In this document: piece after piece, positions 42,721 through 52,092 of the stretch | Layout of the letters: each line of letters begins with the position of its first letter | Numbering within the stretch: position 1 is the stretch's first letter | Virus record (IMG/VR): IMGVR_UViG_2541047857_000014 | DNA: 64,000 nt | DNA from: a virus | Lineage: Duplodnaviria; Heunggongvirae; Uroviricota; Caudoviricetes | Direction: 5' to 3' (one strand) | The notes under the pieces: model-generated | Told to the model about the DNA's origin: nothing | What the model saw: the letters and a program-made list of their open reading frames with translations, nothing else | Databases searched by the model: none | Position numbers and translations under genes: made by a program

Positions 42721-43407
42721 TTAGAAGTTCAGATTTTTCAGTGCATTCAGTGCAGAGCCCACATCCTCAGCGTCGCGCAGGGACAGTGCGCCATAGCCCC
42801 CGGCCATGAATGCTTTGGCCTGGGTACGGGAGAGTCCGACATCACGCAGGACTCTTTCGATTTTTTTCTGTTCGGGGATTTCCCCGCGGGCCAGTGCGTT
42901 CTTGACGTCGCTGATCCGCGCCTCGTCGTTAGACGGGAACGTCACCAGGCTGACTTCCCAGAGGTCGATTTCTTTCAGCAGAAAGGCTTCTTTGCTCCGG
43001 TCGTATTCCCAGTCTTTCAGGACGTACCCAATAGAAAGGCCGGTTAACGAACCGGCCTTCATGTGTGCATGTGCGCGTTTTGCGAGGGGATCATCATCAA
43101 TAAGCAACCGTCCCCTGACGTAAAGCCCGACATCGTCTTCCTTCATTTCGGTGTAAACACCGATGGGTTCATCCATGCGGTGCTGCCAGAGCAGCGCAGG
43201 TAACGCTTTTCTGTCACTCCACGCCCGCAGGGAAGCAGCAAATGCCCCGGACATCACCACATCATCGTGGCTGTCCTTTACACCAAAGACGGAGCCATAC
43301 CCTTCAAACTCACCGGAGTCACTGACAGATTTCAGACTCAGCGGTACATCAAGACGTTGTTTCGTCTGCATTGGCGTTATCCTTCTGCTTACCGGCTTTA
43401 CTGCCAT
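42721..43407 (-). CDS. prohead protease (HK97 family)
   Basis: 228-aa ORF between portal and capsid genes. Confidence 0.75.
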   Translation of the reverse strand: MAVKPVSRRITPMQTKQRLDVPLSLKSVSDSGEFEGYGSVFGVKDSHDDVVMSGAFAASLRAWSDRKALPALLWQHRMDEPIGVYTEMKEDDVGLYVRGRLLIDDDPLAKRAHAHMKAGSLTGLSIGYVLKDWEYDRSKEAFLLKEIDLWEVSLVTFPSNDEARISDVKNALARGEIPEQKKIERVLRDVGLSRTQAKAFMAGGYGALSLRDAEDVGSALNALKNLNF

Positions 43408-44590
43408 CGGAGGGTTTCGTGGTCATGTTCATCGGTGTGAGATAGACATCCCCACCGGGACGGGGATTCATATCTTCCAGGTCGCGGCAGTCATTGGGAG
43501 AGTAAATTCCCCAGTTAATCCCGGTGGCGTAGGCTTCAAAACGGGACTTCATATCCCCGCGCAGTAACGCCCCGGCGTTAAATTTGGCGTAATAAACGCC
43601 CTGCTTACTTTTTCGAACCAGTCCGGTGTTGATCCGCTGCTCGATGCGGGTCAGATACGGCACCAGTGAATAGTTGATAAATCCCAGCCCCAGCTCTTCA
43701 ATATTGTTGAAGGTGGCGCGATCGGTGTTCTGCACCATGTGCAACGGCACCCGGAACAGACGACAGATTTCTTCAAGCTGAAACTTGCGGGTTTCCAGGA
43801 ACTGGCTGTCCTCGGCGTTCAGCGCCATCGACTTCCAGTCCAGCCCCATCTCAAGGATCATCGGGCGGTGAGCATTACCAAGCCCGGTGTGACGCTCCTC
43901 AAAATCTTTCTTCAGGCGCTCGTAAGCCTGATCTGACAGCGTCTGCTCTGTACGCAACACACCCGACGTCACCGCACCATTGCTGAACAGTCTGGCCCCG
44001 TGCTCTTCGGTCGCAGCTGCCAGCGATATTGCCTCGCGGGCATAGGCGATGGGATTCAGCCCCACCAGACCGTCCAGCGTCAGCGTGCGCACATGCCAGA
44101 TATCTTCCTGGCTCAGCACATCCGTGGAGCCGTCCGAGAATGTGACCTGATAGACCGGCTCCCAGCTACTGTTAAGCTTCGGTACCACACAGCCAGGATC
44201 GACGGGCAGCAGTTCAGCCACTTCGCCAAATGCTTTCACTTTGTAGGCGTAAAAGTTTCCCCGCAGGCACAGACAGGTGACCACCAGCTCCCAGAACTCC
44301 TGCGGCGTCATATAGCCATTGGGATGCGTGGAGATCAGCTTATGCAGACGTTCGCCGGTGGCCCTCTGTTTCAGGCTGCCGTTCAGGTGATACAGATTGC
44401 AGGGCAACATCCCGACCGACTCTGCCAGCACCCTGACGCAGGAAAAAACCGCCGTCAGTCGCATGGCCCGCTGGCTGCTGATCTGCTTTCCGGTATAGGT
44501 GTCGTATGACAGCCCGATAGCCTCCGCCAGCTCTGCTGGCGTGGTCACCGGCGCGTCACTTTTTCGTTGAAATAATCCCGAAAAGAACAC
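43349..44590 (-). CDS. portal protein (HK97 family)
   Basis: 413-aa ORF downstream of large terminase. Confidence 0.8.
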   Translation of the reverse strand: MFFSGLFQRKSDAPVTTPAELAEAIGLSYDTYTGKQISSQRAMRLTAVFSCVRVLAESVGMLPCNLYHLNGSLKQRATGERLHKLISTHPNGYMTPQEFWELVVTCLCLRGNFYAYKVKAFGEVAELLPVDPGCVVPKLNSSWEPVYQVTFSDGSTDVLSQEDIWHVRTLTLDGLVGLNPIAYAREAISLAAATEEHGARLFSNGAVTSGVLRTEQTLSDQAYERLKKDFEERHTGLGNAHRPMILEMGLDWKSMALNAEDSQFLETRKFQLEEICRLFRVPLHMVQNTDRATFNNIEELGLGFINYSLVPYLTRIEQRINTGLVRKSKQGVYYAKFNAGALLRGDMKSRFEAYATGINWGIYSPNDCRDLEDMNPRPGGDVYLTPMNMTTKPSDGSKAGKQKDNANADETTS

Positions 44591-44772
44591 TATTTACCTC
44601 CGCCGACAGACAGCTGTGTACGATCGAGATATCGCGCCACCAGCCACGACCAGAACAGGCACAGCGCCCCGGCAACAACAAAACCCGCCGGGGGATAAAT
44701 CAGCCAGGCACCATATGCCAGCAAAAGCGCACCCAGCACGCCCACCAGAGGCGCGAGAATCAGCATGATCAT
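44590..44772 (-). CDS. small hydrophobic protein
   Basis: 60-aa two-TM ORF between terminase and portal. Confidence 0.35.
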
Positions 44773-44783
44773 AATTACCTCAG

Positions 44784-46517
44784 TTAAAGCGAGCGGATCC
44801 CGTAGGACTCAATGTGGTCAGACAGCGTGTCTTCTTTCTCGTACAACATGGCTCTGCCAACCGCCATAATCAGCGCAACTGCACCATCGATTTTGTTTTC
44901 CGCCTGCTCTTTGACGGGTTTCACCACATCATCGTTACCCGGAATGGTTTTGCCGACCACGTTGCCGATACACCAGGTCATGATGGGATTGCCATCATGA
45001 TGAAAGCGCCCCGATTCAATTGCCGCTTCCAGCTCTTTCATCGGGTCGGACATGTTGGTGTAGTTCTGAATGATAGTGATGGGGTTCAGGTCTTCATCAG
45101 CAAGGTCATGTGACAACCCGGTCGCCCCGAAGGGGTCGATGGGTGACTCACTGACCGGGCTGATTTTGTTCGCCGCTTTGGCCTCCTCGAGGATGTAGCG
45201 ATAATCCACCTCCGCACCATCGGTAACGGTCAGAACGCCCATTTCCACCCATTTCTGAAAGCGTTCGGCTGTCCGTCGATCTTCATTTTTCTCGACGCTG
45301 TACACCGTGTCATACGGTACCCAGAAACGCGGGGCCACACTGTAGTAATGCGTTTTACCGTCAATCTCGCGGGTATAAAGTCGCGCCATGCTGTTCATAT
45401 CCAGCTTACGCGCCAGGTCAAAGGCCAGAATGCACGGCTGCCCCTCGAACTGCTCAAGGGTCAGTGATTTATCCTCGCAGCTCTGCCAGCTCACCAGGTT
45501 GAAATACGCCGAACGCGCCGACACCCAGATATTGAGGTGTTTTGTTTTAAAGACGTTTGCCAGACGGGCGTTATTTTTCGCACGCTGCTGCTGACTTAAC
45601 AAAAATTCGCGATAAACCGACACGCCAATATTTGGATTGGCTTTTTCCAGCACCTGCGGGTCGGTCCAGTCGTCACCTTCATCAACGGTATAGATGATCC
45701 CGAACAGTTCATCGTTAGGCACCGAGCCATTGAGCATCTCGATGACTTCCCGCCGCTTGTCGTAGCACGGCCCCTCAATGTTGTACCCGGCGGTGGTGAT
45801 AGCCCACATCAGTGGCTGACGTCGCGCCCCCATCCCGGTAAGCATCGTGGTGTAAAGCGCATCGGTGGCGTGCTCGTGATATTCATCCACCACCGCACAG
45901 TGGGGTGATGAACCATCACCGGGGTTACCGATCAGCGGTTCAAACCGCGCGCCATCCTCCGGACGGTTCATGTTTGAGGCGTTAACCTCAATCCCGAACG
46001 CTTCCGTCAGCATGGGTGTGCGTTTACACATCAGTCGAGCCGGGCGAAAGACTTCCCACGCCTGTTTCTCTGTCGTGGCACCGGAATACACTTCCGCGCC
46101 AAACTCGTTATCACAGGCAAAACAATACAGGGCAACACCGGCAGAGATTGCCGATTTGCCGTTCTTACGGGGGATTTCGGTATACACCTCCCGGAAGCGG
46201 CGCAGCCGGGAGCCTTTATTGACCCAGCCAAACGCGCAGCAGATCACAAAGAGCTGCCACGGCTCCAGCGTGATGGGCATCCTCTTAAATGCCCACTCAC
46301 CCTTGGTGTGCGGCAACAGCTGAATAAATTTGGCGGCCCGTTCAGCCAGGTCCTTGTCGAAGCGGTAACGAAACGACTTACTTTTTTCCGCCATCAGGTC
46401 ATCAAGATGGCGCTGGCAGGCCTGAATCACAAACTGGCAGGCCACAATCTTTCCGCGCACGACATCCCGGGCATACTGATTGGCAGCATTTACGTTGGGG
46501 TAAGATTTCCGGCTCAT
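44784..46517 (-). CDS. terminase large subunit
   Basis: 577-aa ORF, overlaps small subunit stop. Confidence 0.85.
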
Positions 46518-47017
46518 GATTCGATGATTTTCAGAAACGGGTTAGTGGCTTTCTTCTGCCCCGCCAGGCCAATCAGACGCTGACGGCTGCTGGGGTCGAG
46601 TCCGAGCATTGCCCCCGTGCTGCTCATCTCGGACTCCTGTTCTTTTTTGGCTGTCAGCTCCGGATTTTTGACCCTGCCGCCCATTGCGCCGGTGATGGTA
46701 TTGCCCTGTATGGCAATATTTTTCACAGCACGTCGCCAGAACTCATAGGCCACGCACCACCGCTCAAGCACCGCGAGGTCAGTCACGCACAGCAGGCCCT
46801 GACCGCAGAGTTCTTTGGTTGTCAGTTGCCACATGATCGTGGCGAGAGGGAGATCTTCTTCAGCGAACCACTCCGGTGGCTCAACACCTTTGATGGGCGT
46901 AAAAACAGGTTCATCTTTGTTCAGGGCTCGCTTGCCGGGGTTTCCGGCCAGCGCCTTGCGCGCCGTTGGCTTGGGGCGACGCCCGGAACGCCCCGCCGTT
47001 CCAGCCATATGCGGCAC
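46514..47017 (-). CDS. terminase small subunit (P27 family)
   Basis: 167-aa ORF with basic N-terminus [27 protein letters not shown] typical of P27-type small terminases. Confidence 0.75.
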
Positions 47018-47133
47018 TCCTGGTTAAATTTCATTTTTCGCGGGTATAAAAAAACGATGGGGCGGGCAGTCCGGAAGACGTCAGGTCACAGGGATTTGAC
47101 CCGCCCCTCCCCTCAGAAAGTTGAGAATTATTA

Positions 47134-47484
47134 TCACTTCAGTCGTTCACGGGCCGTCTTCGCCTTATGACACGGCCAGCACAGGCTCTGCAGATTGCAG
47201 TCTGCATCAGTGCCGCCATGCGCTTTAGGGATGATGTGGTCAACGGTTTTCGCCTCACGCACCACACCGACATGCAGGCACAACTGACACAGGCCTTTGT
47301 CACGCTTCAGCACGCGCGCGCGGATAACATCCCACTTCGAACCGTAGCCGCGCTGGTGACGGGATTGTCCTGGCTTGTATTGTTTCCAGCCTTCGCTTTT
47401 GTGGCTTTCACAATAGCCTGACGGATCAGTGGTGGTTTGGCGGCAGCCGCGAACGCGGCAGGCTTTTGGGGTTCGTGGGGGCAT
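47134..47484 (-). CDS. HNH endonuclease (terminase-associated)
   Basis: 116-aa ORF with CxxC...HIIPKAHGGTD...CWPCH motifs, directly upstream of terminase genes. Confidence 0.8.
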   Translation of the reverse strand: MPPRTPKACRVRGCRQTTTDPSGYCESHKSEGWKQYKPGQSRHQRGYGSKWDVIRARVLKRDKGLCQLCLHVGVVREAKTVDHIIPKAHGGTDADCNLQSLCWPCHKAKTARERLK

Positions 47485-47586
47485 TTAAAGTGGGATCTAA
47501 CTCTAATAATTTAAAAAATTTAATTGGGTCTTGATATTAATCACATAGACTCAATGCTCTTTAGTTCTTACATAGGTGGTTGTATT

Positions 47587-48027
47587 ATGAGTATCCCCAG
47601 TTTAGATGTTCATAAAGTTGTTAAGTGCGCAGAGCATAAAAAGGCTTTAGATGCAATATCTCTCAAACTTAAGAATAACATTATTGACTCAAGCTCTGAA
47701 TACGATTTTCTTGGCGACACAATAATTTTCAATAAAGATAAAAAAAATAGGTTAACCCTCAAACTTTCAACATATGAACTAGAACTTATTTTCAAAGAAA
47801 CACTGCTAGTCATTGATGAAGCTCCTGTATTGAAGTTTGCTGCCATTGACCCAACCGATGAAAATAACAACGAGCTGATTGATTTATTTTTATCCAAAGG
47901 TGGATTTATTTATATTAGAGAATACAAATCCGAGCCACATTATGAGTATGGCGACACTTCTCTATTTTTACATATACTTGACGCTACTCTTAAAGAGCTT
48001 AAATCTGCAAACAAAATATCCTATTAA
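47587..48027 (+). CDS. hypothetical protein, AT-rich cargo gene
   Basis: ATG at 47587 preceded by AGGTGG; very AT-rich; antisense to the surrounding late operon. Confidence 0.5.
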   Translation: MSIPSLDVHKVVKCAEHKKALDAISLKLKNNIIDSSSEYDFLGDTIIFNKDKKNRLTLKLSTYELELIFKETLLVIDEAPVLKFAAIDPTDENNNELIDLFLSKGGFIYIREYKSEPHYEYGDTSLFLHILDATLKELKSANKISY

Positions 48028-48133
48028 ATAAATTTTTGCTAACATAGCCCCGCGCCATGACAAGATTTTCTGTTCTAGATGCAAGGGCTATGTGTGAATA
48101 TCTATAAACAAAAACCCCATCCGGTGATTTTTG

Positions 48134-48385
48134 TCATTTTTTAGCCATCTCAATTGCGGCATCAAAAAGTCGTTCAAGAATAAAATCAGGGTACTGTAAT
48201 TTTTCTTGCTCGATATGAAGCTCATAAATTTTCCCTTCCCACTCCCATTTAAAATTAAATCCAGAAGCAGAAGGTGCGAAATGTGTTTTAGCTTTAGGGT
48301 TAGCGTAACCAGCAACAGTCAACACATCAAACTTAAAATCTTGAGGTTTAATACGCATAATCATATCCTTTGCCAAGTTCATCAT
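48134..48385 (-). CDS. hypothetical small protein, AT-rich cargo gene
   Basis: 74-83 aa ORF (internal ATG with AAGGA RBS likely true start), convergent with 47587-48027. Confidence 0.4.
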   Translation of the reverse strand: MMNLAKDMIMRIKPQDFKFDVLTVAGYANPKAKTHFAPSASGFNFKWEWEGKIYELHIEQEKLQYPDFILERLFDAAIEMAKK

Positions 48386-48455
48386 TATTCTTCTCGATTA
48401 TAAAACAATGAATAAAATCATTAAAGCATAGACGTTAAATATCCTCAAAATGTGA

Positions 48456-48893
48456 TTAGTTGGGACATTGCGTCCTGATATACTCCTGCAAGTAATTGAC
48501 CTGTGAGGTTATCTTGTCGATTCCACTTCGGAGACGGTAATAATGGAGTTCAGCATCTGCTGTAAGTCTAGGGCTTTCTCCATCGCCCATGCCGCTGGCT
48601 CCGGTCGTTGACTTTGTACAGGTGGCGGCGACTTGCAGGCGCTTATGCCCAGCAGAAACATCAGCACGAAGACTTTCGATAGTCGCATTAGCATCAGCAA
48701 GCTCCTTTGTATATCTGGCATCGAGTTCAGCTACATTACGTTGACGCTTCTGCATATCAGCGATGATGGATGTGGCTTTATCGCGCTGTACTTTGTAGAC
48801 GATGGCGTCATCACGGTAATTATCAACAGCCCATGACAAGCAGACGATGATGCAGATAACCAGAGCGGATATAATCACCGTTACTCTGCTCAT
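48456..48893 (-). CDS. Rz-like inner-membrane spanin
   Basis: 145-aa ORF with N-terminal TM and coiled-coil body, immediately downstream of endolysin. Confidence 0.7.
48509..48688 (-). CDS. Rz1-like outer-membrane spanin lipoprotein, embedded in Rz
   Basis: Out-of-frame ORF within Rz; [18 protein letters not shown] lipobox then Pro-rich tail. Confidence 0.6.
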
Positions 48894-49366
48894 ACCTGAA
48901 TCTCTTTGACCGTTCCGCCGGCTTCTTTGAATTTTGCAATCAGGCTGTCAGCCTTATGCTCAAACTGACCATAACCAGCTCCCGGCAGTGAAGCCCAGAT
49001 ATTGCTGCAACGGTCGATAGCCTGACGAATATCACCGCGATCAATCATCGGTAAAGCACCACGCTCTTTAATCTGCTGCAGTGCAACAGCATCCTGGCTT
49101 TTTGGAGAGAAGTCTTTCAGTCCAAGCTGTTTACGGTATGCATCCCACCAGCGGGAAAGAAGCTGGTAGCGCCCGGCAGCCGTTGATTTGAGTTTTGGGT
49201 TTAGCGTGACAAGTCTGCGAGGGTGATCGGAGTAATCAGTGAATATTTCTCCGCCCACAATGACGTCATAACCATGATTACGTGTCGGTTGTAGCCCATT
49301 ATCCGTTCCTTCTGACCAGGCCACCATATCGAGGAAAGCTTTACGCTGAGGATTAAGATTTTGCAT
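48890..49366 (-). CDS. endolysin, lambda R-like lytic transglycosylase
   Basis: [20 protein letters not shown]...[13 protein letters not shown]...[20 protein letters not shown] is near-identical to lambda R as I recall it. Confidence 0.85.
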
Positions 49367-49757
49367 TTTTCACCCCTGTCAGTCGTTCCCAGAAGTACGT
49401 CAGTGCAACCGAACCCATCGCACCACTAATCCCCGCAGTTGCGAGAATCATGTAAATACTGAATCCACTTTCGATACTGATTAGGCCACCAATAACACCG
49501 GTGAATCCTGATACAACTATCTGAGCGAGGGCATTTATCCAGCTCCACGTTGCTTTACTCTGCTTCACATCAATCAGGTAACGGACAAGCCCCCCCCAAC
49601 CTGCGATGATCAGCAAAACAAGCCAGAACGCTCCGGCAAGATTCTCTTTTTCGTGCATATGAATAGCCGCAGTTTCGCCTCCGACAGAAAATCGGAGCGT
49701 GAAATGATATGTTGATTTATTATTAATTCGAAAATTACATTCTAATTCATCAGGCAT
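49353..49757 (-). CDS. putative holin
   Basis: ORF with three hydrophobic segments immediately upstream of endolysin; likely true start at internal ATG about 49658. Confidence 0.55.
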   Translation of the reverse strand: MPDELECNFRINNKSTYHFTLRFSVGGETAAIHMHEKENLAGAFWLVLLIIAGWGGLVRYLIDVKQSKATWSWINALAQIVVSGFTGVIGGLISIESGFSIYMILATAGISGAMGSVALTYFWERLTGVKNAKS

Positions 49758-49809
49758 TGATGATTTTATAATAATAAAGGCCGTTCGTTACGGCCTTTAT
49801 TATTGATAT

Positions 49810-50145
49810 TTATTTTACATCCCAAGGTAGTTCCTCAAGAGAGAAGACTAATTCATTATCAATAATTTCGTATTCTGCATAACCTTCAACCTCTCCTGAG
49901 AAGTTATTGTCAACGCATCCTTCATAATAGCTATATGGTGCTATAAAGTGAAACCCATATTCATCTATCTCTGTGATTTCAAAATTGTAGTAATCGTAAG
50001 AATATCGAATATCATCATCAGAAATAGAACTAAGTACATAGTTATTAAATTTATCGGAATGCTTAACGATAAGTTCTGACAACGCGTCAAGATTCTCTGG
50101 AGAGATATTTCCTAACGGTAATCTGTACTCAACGGCATTAATCAT
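49810..50145 (-). CDS. hypothetical acidic protein, AT-rich cargo gene between Q and lysis genes
   Basis: 111-aa ORF, highly acidic C-terminus, AT-rich, followed by hairpin about 49779-49800. Confidence 0.5.
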   Translation of the reverse strand: MINAVEYRLPLGNISPENLDALSELIVKHSDKFNNYVLSSISDDDIRYSYDYYNFEITEIDEYGFHFIAPYSYYEGCVDNNFSGEVEGYAEYEIIDNELVFSLEELPWDVK

Positions 50146-50194
50146 ACAACCTCCTTTTTAACTGATATGAGGTTATATAATGTGTTTCAGTACA

Positions 50195-50226
50195 AGTAAA
50201 TAAAAACCCGCTCAACAGCGGGTTCG
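50195..50226 (-). terminator. putative late terminator (tR-prime-like) downstream of Q
   Basis: On the minus strand: aacccgctgttgagcgggtt stem-loop followed by TTTTATTTA. Confidence 0.4.
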
Positions 50227-50330
50227 TGAAAATTATCAACGGCAGACATACAAAGCCCATCGTTGAGAAAATCTTATCCATATTTTTTGAAAAATGCAAG
50301 CTTCATGTCACTATCTTCGGCGAAAATCAC

Positions 50331-51083
50331 TTATCTCGTCACCTTTCTCAATTGTGTTTCAGCATATGCTTCTTCCTGCCAGCACTTTGTTACTAGTTTA
50401 TCAATTACGTCTGCATATCCTTTGTACCACTGATAATCAGTCAGGTCTGGAACCAGCTTCTGGACATGACGTCGTGCCAGTGTAGTCGGTAAACGGCTAA
50501 ACCGGTTTCCATTGCAACGCCCACAAGTCTTATAAACAGGCGTGCCATGAAGCCGGGTTCTTTTTTCATCCAGGACAATACCTTTACCCTTACACCCTCT
50601 GCACGCCGTGCTGACTTCTCCCTTGCCATGACAATGCTGACACAGTTCCTTCACCCACTCTTCTTTGATAACGGATTCCCCGCTTCTGGAATGTTTCACC
50701 ACTTCGCGCAATACATTATGAAATCCAGTACCAGTACAATGCTCACAGCGAGCCTTACTTGCCGCAGACCTGGAATAATCAGCAAAGGCAAAATTCACAA
50801 GGTAAGGGATGATCTGTAACCGGGTTTCTTCACTCAATTTGTTCAATGTCGGGTTATCCAGTGCCATCGCGTAATTGAGCAGGCCTTCAATCGCAAACTG
50901 AGGATCCTGAACACCAACTTTTGCCAGGAATAAGGCAAACCCAAGCGGTGCTTTCGACTGCACCATCCCCTGCGCAGCCATTACATCCGTAATTGTTAAA
51001 CCACCCGAGCCTGTCGCCGATGCGTCATCGCTCAATTTTGGAGATTTTGGGGAGTAATATTTCGGTAAGGCTTCAAGGTTCAT
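50331..51083 (-). CDS. late antitermination protein Q
   Basis: Cys-rich CEHCTGTG...CQHCHGKG...CRGCKGKG zinc-binding pattern and position upstream of lysis genes; start MNLEALPKYY. Confidence 0.7.
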   Translation of the reverse strand: MNLEALPKYYSPKSPKLSDDASATGSGGLTITDVMAAQGMVQSKAPLGFALFLAKVGVQDPQFAIEGLLNYAMALDNPTLNKLSEETRLQIIPYLVNFAFADYSRSAASKARCEHCTGTGFHNVLREVVKHSRSGESVIKEEWVKELCQHCHGKGEVSTACRGCKGKGIVLDEKRTRLHGTPVYKTCGRCNGNRFSRLPTTLARRHVQKLVPDLTDYQWYKGYADVIDKLVTKCWQEEAYAETQLRKVTR

Positions 51084-51096
51084 GCTCGTTCTCCAC

Positions 51097-52092
51097 TTAC
51101 ACCAGTACGCCAATTGCCAGCGCACGATCGATAAAACGAAATATCAGCTCCAGCTGGGAGCCATACATCTCTTCAAATGCCACGGTATCCGCATGCAGCT
51201 CGTCGTGATGCTTTCTGCACAAAGGCAACACAAAAAGGTCATGCGCTTTTGTACCCATTCCACCCTGTCCGTGGCCTATCAGGTGGTGGGGATCATCAGC
51301 GGGCTTTCCACAACATGCACACGACTGTGTCTTAACCCAGCGCGTGTACTTTTCATTAACCCAGCGGCGACGTTTTGGGCGTAACATAAAAGACTCCGGC
51401 GACTCCGGATCCACTTTCAGCGCCAGCACCTTTTTCGCTTTATCCTGGATGATGCTGGTGGCAGGAACCGAAGGCACAAGGTCACTTTCCCGGGTGACAG
51501 ACGGCACAACAGGCTTCGGTAATCTCAGTGCCTTACGGGCTGCACTTTCCGGTAAGGCATCCGCCAGATCATTACGAACCAGCCACCAGCACAGTTCCGG
51601 CATTGTCACAACGTGACTGTCATCAAAACCGAGATCCCGACGCACAACAGACAACACCCAGCGGGCACAGTTATCCGTTGCCATTGATTCCAGCCGTTCC
51701 GTGAACTGATCGCGAAGCAGGTTATCGCAGTGCCAGCACAGACGGATTGCGCCCGGCGCGTGTCGCATTGTGGTCATGTTCTCGCTGTGCCATCCGGAAT
51801 GAGGCCACTGACAGCCCTTTTCACGAAGTAACCAGCTTTCAAGACATTCCACACCCCCCGCACGACGAATAACTGCCTCATTGCGGAACACGGCCCGAAT
51901 GGCAGGATCATCCGCCAGCGGTTGTGATGCCGCCGGAACGGCACCACTGGCAAAAGATGAATAACGTTCCGGCTCAGGCTCCAGCAGGACACGCCCCTGC
52001 ATAAACAGGGGCATCAGCTCTGAACCGGGCCTGAACAATACGATCCCCATACGCGGGGCAATTTCAGGGGTCAGTAGTGCTCTCACGGTCAC
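51097..52092 (-). CDS. DUF968-like phage protein
   Basis: 331-aa ORF with C-terminal CACCGKPADDPHHLIGHGQGGMGTKAHDLFVLPLCRKHHDELH motif, in nin-like region. Confidence 0.5.
   Translation of the reverse strand: MTVRALLTPEIAPRMGIVLFRPGSELMPLFMQGRVLLEPEPERYSSFASGAVPAASQPLADDPAIRAVFRNEAVIRRAGGVECLESWLLREKGCQWPHSGWHSENMTTMRHAPGAIRLCWHCDNLLRDQFTERLESMATDNCARWVLSVVRRDLGFDDSHVVTMPELCWWLVRNDLADALPESAARKALRLPKPVVPSVTRESDLVPSVPATSIIQDKAKKVLALKVDPESPESFMLRPKRRRWVNEKYTRWVKTQSCACCGKPADDPHHLIGHGQGGMGTKAHDLFVLPLCRKHHDELHADTVAFEEMYGSQLELIFRFIDRALAIGVLV

Follow-up and report, generated by a model that had tools for sequence, protein, structure and literature searches.

Two small uncharacterised genes at the lysis/packaging junction of an SfIV-like prophage

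Two genes in an AT-rich slot

Between the lysis cassette and the packaging genes of an SfIV-like prophage lies a short AT-rich segment that carries two small genes, here called gene A and gene B. The DNA analysed, referred to as the window, is a stretch of 64,000 nucleotides from the viral record IMGVR_UViG_2541047857_000014 (Caudoviricetes). Its host element, an SfIV-like prophage whose head is of the HK97 type, is found in extraintestinal pathogenic Escherichia coli (ExPEC), for example strains S88 and UTI89. The initial annotation had described an AT-rich insert with two convergent cargo genes, located between the HNH/terminase block and the lysis cassette. Both the insert and the opposed orientation of its genes were borne out. 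The segment measures 971 bp (positions 47485-48455) and has sharp bounds, with a guanine-cytosine (GC) content of 32.9% compared with 55.8% in the packaging block (43349-47484) and 47.8% in the lysis block (48456-49757). E. coli S88 and MS7163 are 100% identical to the window across the region, and the exact insert is carried by 102 of 5,426 complete E. coli genomes.

Gene A lies on the plus strand and gene B on the minus strand, with a spacer of 106 bp between their converging ends (Table 1). The start sites of both open reading frames (ORFs) were revised. The plus-strand ORF as listed spans 47524-48027 (167 aa from a TTG codon), and homologues and RefSeq back the ATG at 47587 instead, which gives a protein of 146 aa. 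The minus-strand ORF as listed spans 48134-48385. All homologues and RefSeq begin at 48358, so that gene B encodes 74 aa and the 83-aa form is unsupported. As the late genes flanking the slot on both sides are all on the minus strand, gene A is indeed antisense to the late operon. Gene B is not antisense cargo; it runs in line with the lysis cassette on the strand of the late operon.

Both ORFs are genuine protein genes, as opposed to chance reading frames. Thirteen full-length homologues of gene A (27-94% identity) align end to end and nearly without gaps. The ratio of nonsynonymous to synonymous substitution rates (dN/dS) was 0.17-0.44 for pairs of A homologues with unsaturated synonymous sites and 0.65 in the closest pair, formed by the window and prophage L022. 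For gene B, dN/dS was 0.03-0.18 with saturated synonymous sites, which points to strong purifying selection.

Comparison with related prophages confirmed that the slot holds cargo of the moron type. Phage SfIV has an empty slot, with 291 bp separating its spanin and HNH genes. The packaging block of the window is 96-97% identical to those of SfIV-like prophages, and E. coli prophages with the same packaging genes (L010-L012) fill the slot with different cargo. These alternative occupants are a GrlR-family gene, an IS3 element with a DUF6979 gene, and two unrelated antisense hypothetical genes. Homology to related prophages breaks at the HNH start codon (47484-47489) and returns only at 48630-48954, within the Rz or lysozyme gene. 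A search for flanking direct or inverted repeats that might mark an insertion mechanism gave short chance repeats only, and an Rfam scan of 47000-49000 gave no match. In strain 2014C-3075 (L010 3631-3951), the A/B slot is occupied by the GrlR-family regulator. In E. coli UMNK88 (L012 6339-7036), a TIR-domain gene and a caspase-family gene lie beyond the holin.

Separate distribution of the A and B families

One part of the initial description did not survive: A and B are not conserved as a pair, an outcome that the initial annotation itself had named as refuting it. Each family was found in five lineages, and in four of the five gene A has no B homologue beside it; the same proportion holds for gene B without A. 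Members of the A family sit between the last lysis gene and the packaging genes, opposite the late strand, in all lineages examined. Besides the window, these are L002 (61% identity), L019-21 with L027-32 (62-64%), L014/15 (35%), and L016-18 with L034 (28-33%). Their prophages differ in endolysins, holins, and terminases, the latter including both P27/HNH-type and lambda GpA-type enzymes. Members of the B family follow the spanin gene at 90-120 bp and share the late strand with it, again in all lineages examined. Their lineages besides the window are L003/4, L005/40/41, L006-9, and L039, which have three other terminase types. Every prophage that has both genes (L022, L033, and L024-26) shares at least 96% identity with the window in this region.

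The extent of homology also separates the two genes. DNA homology of gene A to the 62%-identical lineage ends at the borders of the gene itself (47464/47550 to 48028). In L006 and L008, homology runs collinearly through gene B, Rz, lysozyme, and holin at about 70% nucleotide identity. From these separate extents and separate lineages it follows that the "insert" consists of two abutting modules whose junction lies within the 106-bp spacer. Two hairpins were found in this stretch, one long and imperfect and one terminator-like, the latter not called in a strict terminator scan. The convergent layout and the shared hairpin with its T-run reflect abutting modules, and are no evidence for a two-gene system.

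Natural variants address the same question. In L022 an intact gene A stands beside a dead gene B, and in UTI89 an intact gene B stands beside a frameshifted gene A. These combinations argue against an obligatory dependence of the toxin/antidote type. A type II toxin-antitoxin pair was rejected as a candidate, given that the genes are convergent, not co-conserved, and devoid of toxin or antitoxin Pfam domains. The inactive gene B of L022 (689-915) carries a CAA-to-TAA nonsense codon.

The 62%-identical A homologues lie in a conserved block of their own (L002 5609-6708; L019 6622-7717) that comprises a gene of 76 aa, the antisense A homologue, and a gene of 77 or 78 aa. This three-gene block is common to prophages with HK97-type and with lambda-type packaging genes. 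Relative to the antisense gene, the 77-aa neighbour holds the position that atiEcA has (see below); its similarity to AtiEcA is trivial (9 of 34 residues), and it was not used as evidence.

Properties of the two genes and their surroundings

The soluble gene A protein is modelled with good confidence. Its AlphaFold (AF2) model (predicted local distance difference test, pLDDT, 86; predicted template modelling score, pTM, 0.79) has a long amphipathic N-terminal helix (residues 8-37), an antiparallel sheet of seven to eight strands, and a C-terminal helix (residues 126-140). As modelled, this is a generic alpha/beta sandwich. Invariant columns of the 13-member alignment belong mostly to the hydrophobic core, with no conserved set of catalytic residues among them. 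The protein has a hydrophilic N-terminus (MSIPSLDVHKVVKCAEHKK) and lacks a signal peptide, lipobox, or membrane segment. Its only significant viral structure match is A0A873WDE3 of Burkholderia phage Mana (TM 0.72, E = 1e-5), an uncharacterised protein of similar length with 14% identity to gene A. Mana serves as the reference phage of Kisquinquevirus, to which the lysogeny-capable myoviruses KS5 and AP3 belong (PMC8310193).

Several more specific assignments were considered for gene A and rejected. The fold class resembles frataxin/CyaY-like and type III secretion chaperone-like alpha/beta sandwiches. Membership in Pfam Frataxin_Cyay combined with more than a generic fold likeness was not found, and a frataxin/CyaY identity was dropped. 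A HEPN identity would rest on a single Rx6H string (R110...H117) in which neither residue is conserved, and the fold is not all-helical. For an E2/UBC-like activity, the sole cysteine (C14) is neither invariant nor at a UBC-like position.

The A family is very small. A word-indexed search returned 4 clusters, a search among 1.84 billion representative proteins gave 7 matches, and a profile search of 5.8 billion proteins gave about 16 clusters. The clusters come only from Enterobacteriaceae (Escherichia, Salmonella, Citrobacter, Atlantibacter, and Lelliottia). The homologous genes are themselves AT-rich, with 30-35% GC compared with 52-56% in their flanks, and several are followed by clear terminators or hairpins. 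The conserved elements upstream of gene A (Table 1) emerge when this region is aligned with its counterparts in the 62%-identical homologues.

A run of eight adenines within gene A is a recurrent site of length change. Genomes of the UTI89 type have seven, which truncates the protein at 55 aa. L033 carries a different gene A allele and is frameshifted at the same tract. In P0002 the tract is three bases shorter and remains in frame, and P0003 has a frameshift further along the gene. Judged from these alleles, the length variation indicates recurrent slippage, possibly with on/off switching. Carriers of gene A in the complete-genome set are mostly ExPEC or avian pathogenic E. coli (APEC), for example S88, UTI89, and APEC O2:K1.

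Gene B is shorter and less well modelled. Its predicted fold (alpha-beta3-alpha) is of low confidence (pLDDT 64), with structure matches that are not interpretable, and the protein has no membrane segment or signal peptide. Homologues with 64-78% identity occur in Enterobacter asburiae, Pantoea latae, and metagenomes, and a scan of genome contigs found only the Pantoea latae locus that was already known. All gene B loci keep a TATAAT or TGTAAT box 35-45 nt before the ATG; the promoter scan found no good -35 element. An intrinsic terminator directly follows the stop codon in every B locus, GC-rich in L003, L005, and L006, and weaker and AU-rich in the window. With its own -10 box and terminator, gene B is a separable cassette.

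In four of the five B lineages, antisense cargo stands directly after gene B, and it differs each time. The cargo is gene A in the window, genes of 206 and 78 aa in L008 (2211-2831), a DUF2158 gene and one of 80 aa in L003 (6521-7012), and a gene of 75 aa in L039 (4314-4541). Gene B and its terminator may thus mark a boundary that tolerates antisense cargo.

Database searches upheld the earlier statement that neither protein has a recognisable motif. Pfam, PHROG, and NCBIfam scans of A and B found nothing significant, including no toxin or antitoxin Pfam domain. Homology to known lysis or packaging proteins had been named as an observation that would overturn the cargo description. In the same three databases neither protein showed homology to holin, antiholin, spanin, endolysin, terminase, or HNH families. 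Sequence-profile searches against the PDB gave noise only, and tblastn against 50,697 phage genomes (phi80 included) returned no match for either protein. A PADLOC match to PDC-M24A (E = 0.016 over 31 residues) was discarded as chance. A literature search on the two RefSeq accessions found nothing.

The surrounding genes follow a common late-region plan. On the packaging side, the order in the window is portal, YmfR, large terminase, P27-family small terminase, and HNH endonuclease, after which the AT-rich segment begins. Beyond the segment come Rz with an embedded Rz1, a GH24 lysozyme, the holin, a second AT-rich island, and the antiterminator Q. The Rz1-type lipoprotein ORF (48509-48721, minus strand) has the lipobox LLGISAC and is missing from the annotation of the S88 RefSeq record. 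The second island (49758-50330, 33.9% GC) lies between holin and Q and contains a minus-strand ORF (49810-50145) of 111 aa with a pI of 4.05 and a net charge of -19. It belongs to the uncharacterised family PHROG 13663. The charge suggests a protein of the DNA-mimic or anti-restriction type.

Table 1. Coordinates of the slot, its two genes, and flanking late genes in the window
Feature	Positions	Strand	Description
AT-rich variable slot	47485..48455	.	From HNH start codon to Rz stop; composition and homology breaks
Gene A	47587..48027	+	146 aa, soluble, pI 5.4, predicted alpha/beta sandwich; antisense to late operon; WP_000026993
Gene A upstream region	47531..47579	+	Conserved TTGATA (47531-47536), CTCAATG (47550-47556), and Shine-Dalgarno AGGTGG (47574-47579)
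A8 homopolymer within gene A	47740..47747	+	Recurrent slippage site; protein stops at 55 aa in the A7 form
Long imperfect hairpin (CATAGCCCC...GGGCTATG)	48043..48093	.	Between A and B; folding of minus strand z = -3.9; marks junction of A and B modules
Terminator-like hairpin	48108..48143	.	A-run, stem, T-run; directly after B stop and about 80 nt after A stop; could act both ways
Gene B	48134..48358	-	74 aa, WP_001220676; late-operon strand, directly after Rz
Gene B upstream region	48359..48455	-	TATAAT (48402-48397, minus strand) and Shine-Dalgarno AAGGA
Large terminase	44784-46517	-	
P27-family small terminase	46514-47017	-	
HNH endonuclease	47134..47484	-	Pfam PF01844, E = 5e-14; RefSeq; first packaging-block gene, left slot border
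Rz spanin	48456..48893	-	Pfam PF03245, E = 8e-37; last lysis-cassette gene, right slot border
Antiterminator Q	50331-51125	-	

Comparison with known prophage cargo and possible roles

Genes with a comparable placement are known from other lambdoid phages. Lambda bor is expressed in the lysogen and encodes an outer-membrane lipoprotein; it runs opposite to the late operon, between Rz and the packaging genes. Gene A has the same position and orientation. A Bor-type lipoprotein was rejected as an identity for gene A, which has no signal peptide, lipobox, or sequence similarity to Bor.

A second precedent is taiEcA (orf63) of phage phi80, a gene of 204 aa located between Rz/rha and cos in antisense orientation; the lysogen produces its protein, which blocks tail assembly of incoming phages (PMC11364771). 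TaiEcA is reduced under Q expression and neutralised by the adjoining late-strand gene atiEcA of 76 aa, and Tai homologues in phages are found predominantly upstream of the packaging module (PMC11364771). The A/B locus shares the slot, an antisense gene in a Q-dependent late operon upstream of the packaging module, and a late-strand neighbour of about 75 aa. It differs in that gene A encodes an alpha/beta sandwich (as modelled) of 146 aa, in contrast to the 204 aa of TaiEcA. Moreover, in the late direction gene B precedes A and the two converge, whereas ati follows tai and those two diverge, and A and B are not inherited together across lineages. Comparison of gene A with TaiEcA gave nothing by BLASTP and a probability of 0.1% by hhalign, and gene B against AtiEcA gave an hhalign probability of 0.9%. 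By these comparisons, the resemblance is one of architecture only. TaiEcA itself (L023 4366-4980) has no Pfam match and a weak PADLOC match to CARF_HEPN (E = 0.004). A relationship to HEPN defences is possible; one of these, Gifsy-1 HepS, senses the tail-tip protein J (PMC13043305).

More broadly, A and B fit the moron concept (Hendrix/Juhala), which has been described for P22-like phages (PMC2629481). Both are present in some phages and missing at the same place in close relatives, and both differ in composition from their flanks. They lie within the late operon and have no apparent part in assembly or lysis, and gene B has a -10-like box and a terminator. Independent expression, which is part of the moron definition, is presumed for A and B, and no promoter could be recognised for gene A.

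We consider, with moderate confidence, that A and B are two independent morons in the variable lysis/packaging slot of an SfIV-like prophage. Such a kind of gene is already known, since morons at the lysis/packaging junction include lysogen-expressed antisense genes; the two families themselves are uncharacterised and very rare. Expression of gene A in the lysogen, as the initial annotation had proposed, is plausible from its orientation and from the lambda bor and phi80 taiEcA precedents. Gene A would be transcribed on its own in the lysogen and, because it faces the oncoming Q-antiterminated late transcript, would be damped after induction, as is taiEcA. It most likely acts by binding another protein. 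With no enzymatic signature and fairly fast evolution (dN/dS about 0.3), a protein-binding role in superinfection exclusion or defence, protecting the lysogen from other phages, is our tentative candidate function for A, possible though far from assured. Gene B would be made late in the lytic cycle, possibly with low-level expression from its own -10 box. Purifying selection, the fixed place after the spanin gene, and orientation along the late strand favour a late function that serves the phage and not the host. Candidate roles of B are to assist in the final stage of the lytic cycle or to inhibit some host function.

Several observations count against this interpretation. The consensus promoter scan upstream of gene A found no canonical sigma-70 match and no recognisable -10 box. 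Of 33 evenly sampled full-length E. coli matches to gene A, 14 are 1 bp shorter, so that about 40% of carriers are frameshifted. Gene B has at least three frameshift variants (clusters P0006, P0010, and P0014) and one nonsense variant. This natural inactivation means that neither gene is needed by the lysogen and that any benefit is conditional or weak. PADLOC 2023 links neither protein to any defence family, a weak negative because the same library recognises TaiEcA only unclearly. Finally, A and B do co-occur in the window lineage, where a lineage-specific interaction is possible.

The phi80 precedent invites a stronger proposal, namely that A and B form a defence and counter-defence pair in a "noncontiguous operon", with A blocking incoming phages and late-expressed B neutralising A. 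The architecture matches, with an antisense gene in the late operon before the packaging genes and a small late-strand neighbour (74-76 aa). A and B also have in common a hairpin with a T-run, and they are inherited together in the lineage of the window and in two prophages with 96% identity over this region, one of which has a different endolysin and holins. We nevertheless regard such a pair as distinctly unlikely. Outside this near-identical lineage there is no co-conservation, and L022 keeps an intact A beside a B pseudogene, a state that a functional phage should not tolerate if B were a needed antidote. UTI89 shows the converse, an intact B with a frameshifted A. Neither protein has sequence or profile similarity to TaiEcA or AtiEcA, and the order of the genes is reversed relative to tai and ati. 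A further proposal sees gene A as a host-fitness or virulence moron that benefits ExPEC in the animal host without anti-phage action. Its slot and orientation are those of lambda bor, and its carriers among complete genomes are largely ExPEC or APEC. Yet the protein lacks the signal peptide, lipobox, and membrane segment of a Bor-like surface protein, and the family also occurs in prophages of Citrobacter, Atlantibacter, and Lelliottia. Clonal inheritance of a single prophage explains the strain distribution, and about 40% of carriers have a truncated gene. This fitness role is very unlikely.

Gene B might instead belong to the lysis cassette, for instance as a cytoplasmic protein that controls when lysis occurs or how spanin, endolysin, or holin act. 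It follows the final gene of the lysis cassette at 90-120 bp and shares its strand, across five lineages and three packaging-module types. Its divergence is similar to that of Rz, lysozyme, and holin, with which it is co-linear, and purifying selection on it is strong. We still consider the proposal rather doubtful, as B has no membrane segment, signal peptide, or lysis-family match, and in Pantoea it follows a spanin of another type (DUF2570). Most phages whose lysis cassettes are homologous also lack B, among them L010-L012 and SfIV. The -10 box and terminator of B make it a separable cassette, and pseudogene variants are common. Those variants, together with the recurrent inactivation of gene A in natural isolates and its dN/dS of 0.65 between the window and L022, could alternatively mean that both ORFs are decaying remnants without present function in this prophage. 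Such decay is improbable: both reading frames are intact in the window with good ribosome-binding sites, long-term dN/dS of both genes is well below 1, and the gene A model folds confidently.

Beyond the reading of A and B as two independent morons, a more specific proposal can be formulated, which we think unlikely at present. The A family would be an unrecognised single-protein anti-phage or exclusion system, switched on in the lysogen and turned down by the late transcript, and gene B a late inhibitor, acting in self-immunity within this lineage or on a host function. If this were true, the constant antisense placement of the A family where the lysis cassette ends would couple its expression to the life cycle of the phage. 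Should neither gene have a phenotype, both would be routine moron cargo.

The lysis/packaging junction of lambdoid prophages is emerging as a home of lysogen-expressed defence genes, with lambda bor and phi80 Tai as examples, and the related HepS of Gifsy-1 shows how such prophage genes can work. Gene A is rare, confidently modelled, and uncharacterised, and its position and orientation are kept down to 27% identity across differing lysis and packaging modules. This conservation makes it a cheap and well-defined candidate for defence screens. Variation of the A8 tract between on and off states provides natural isogenic comparisons in ExPEC strains.

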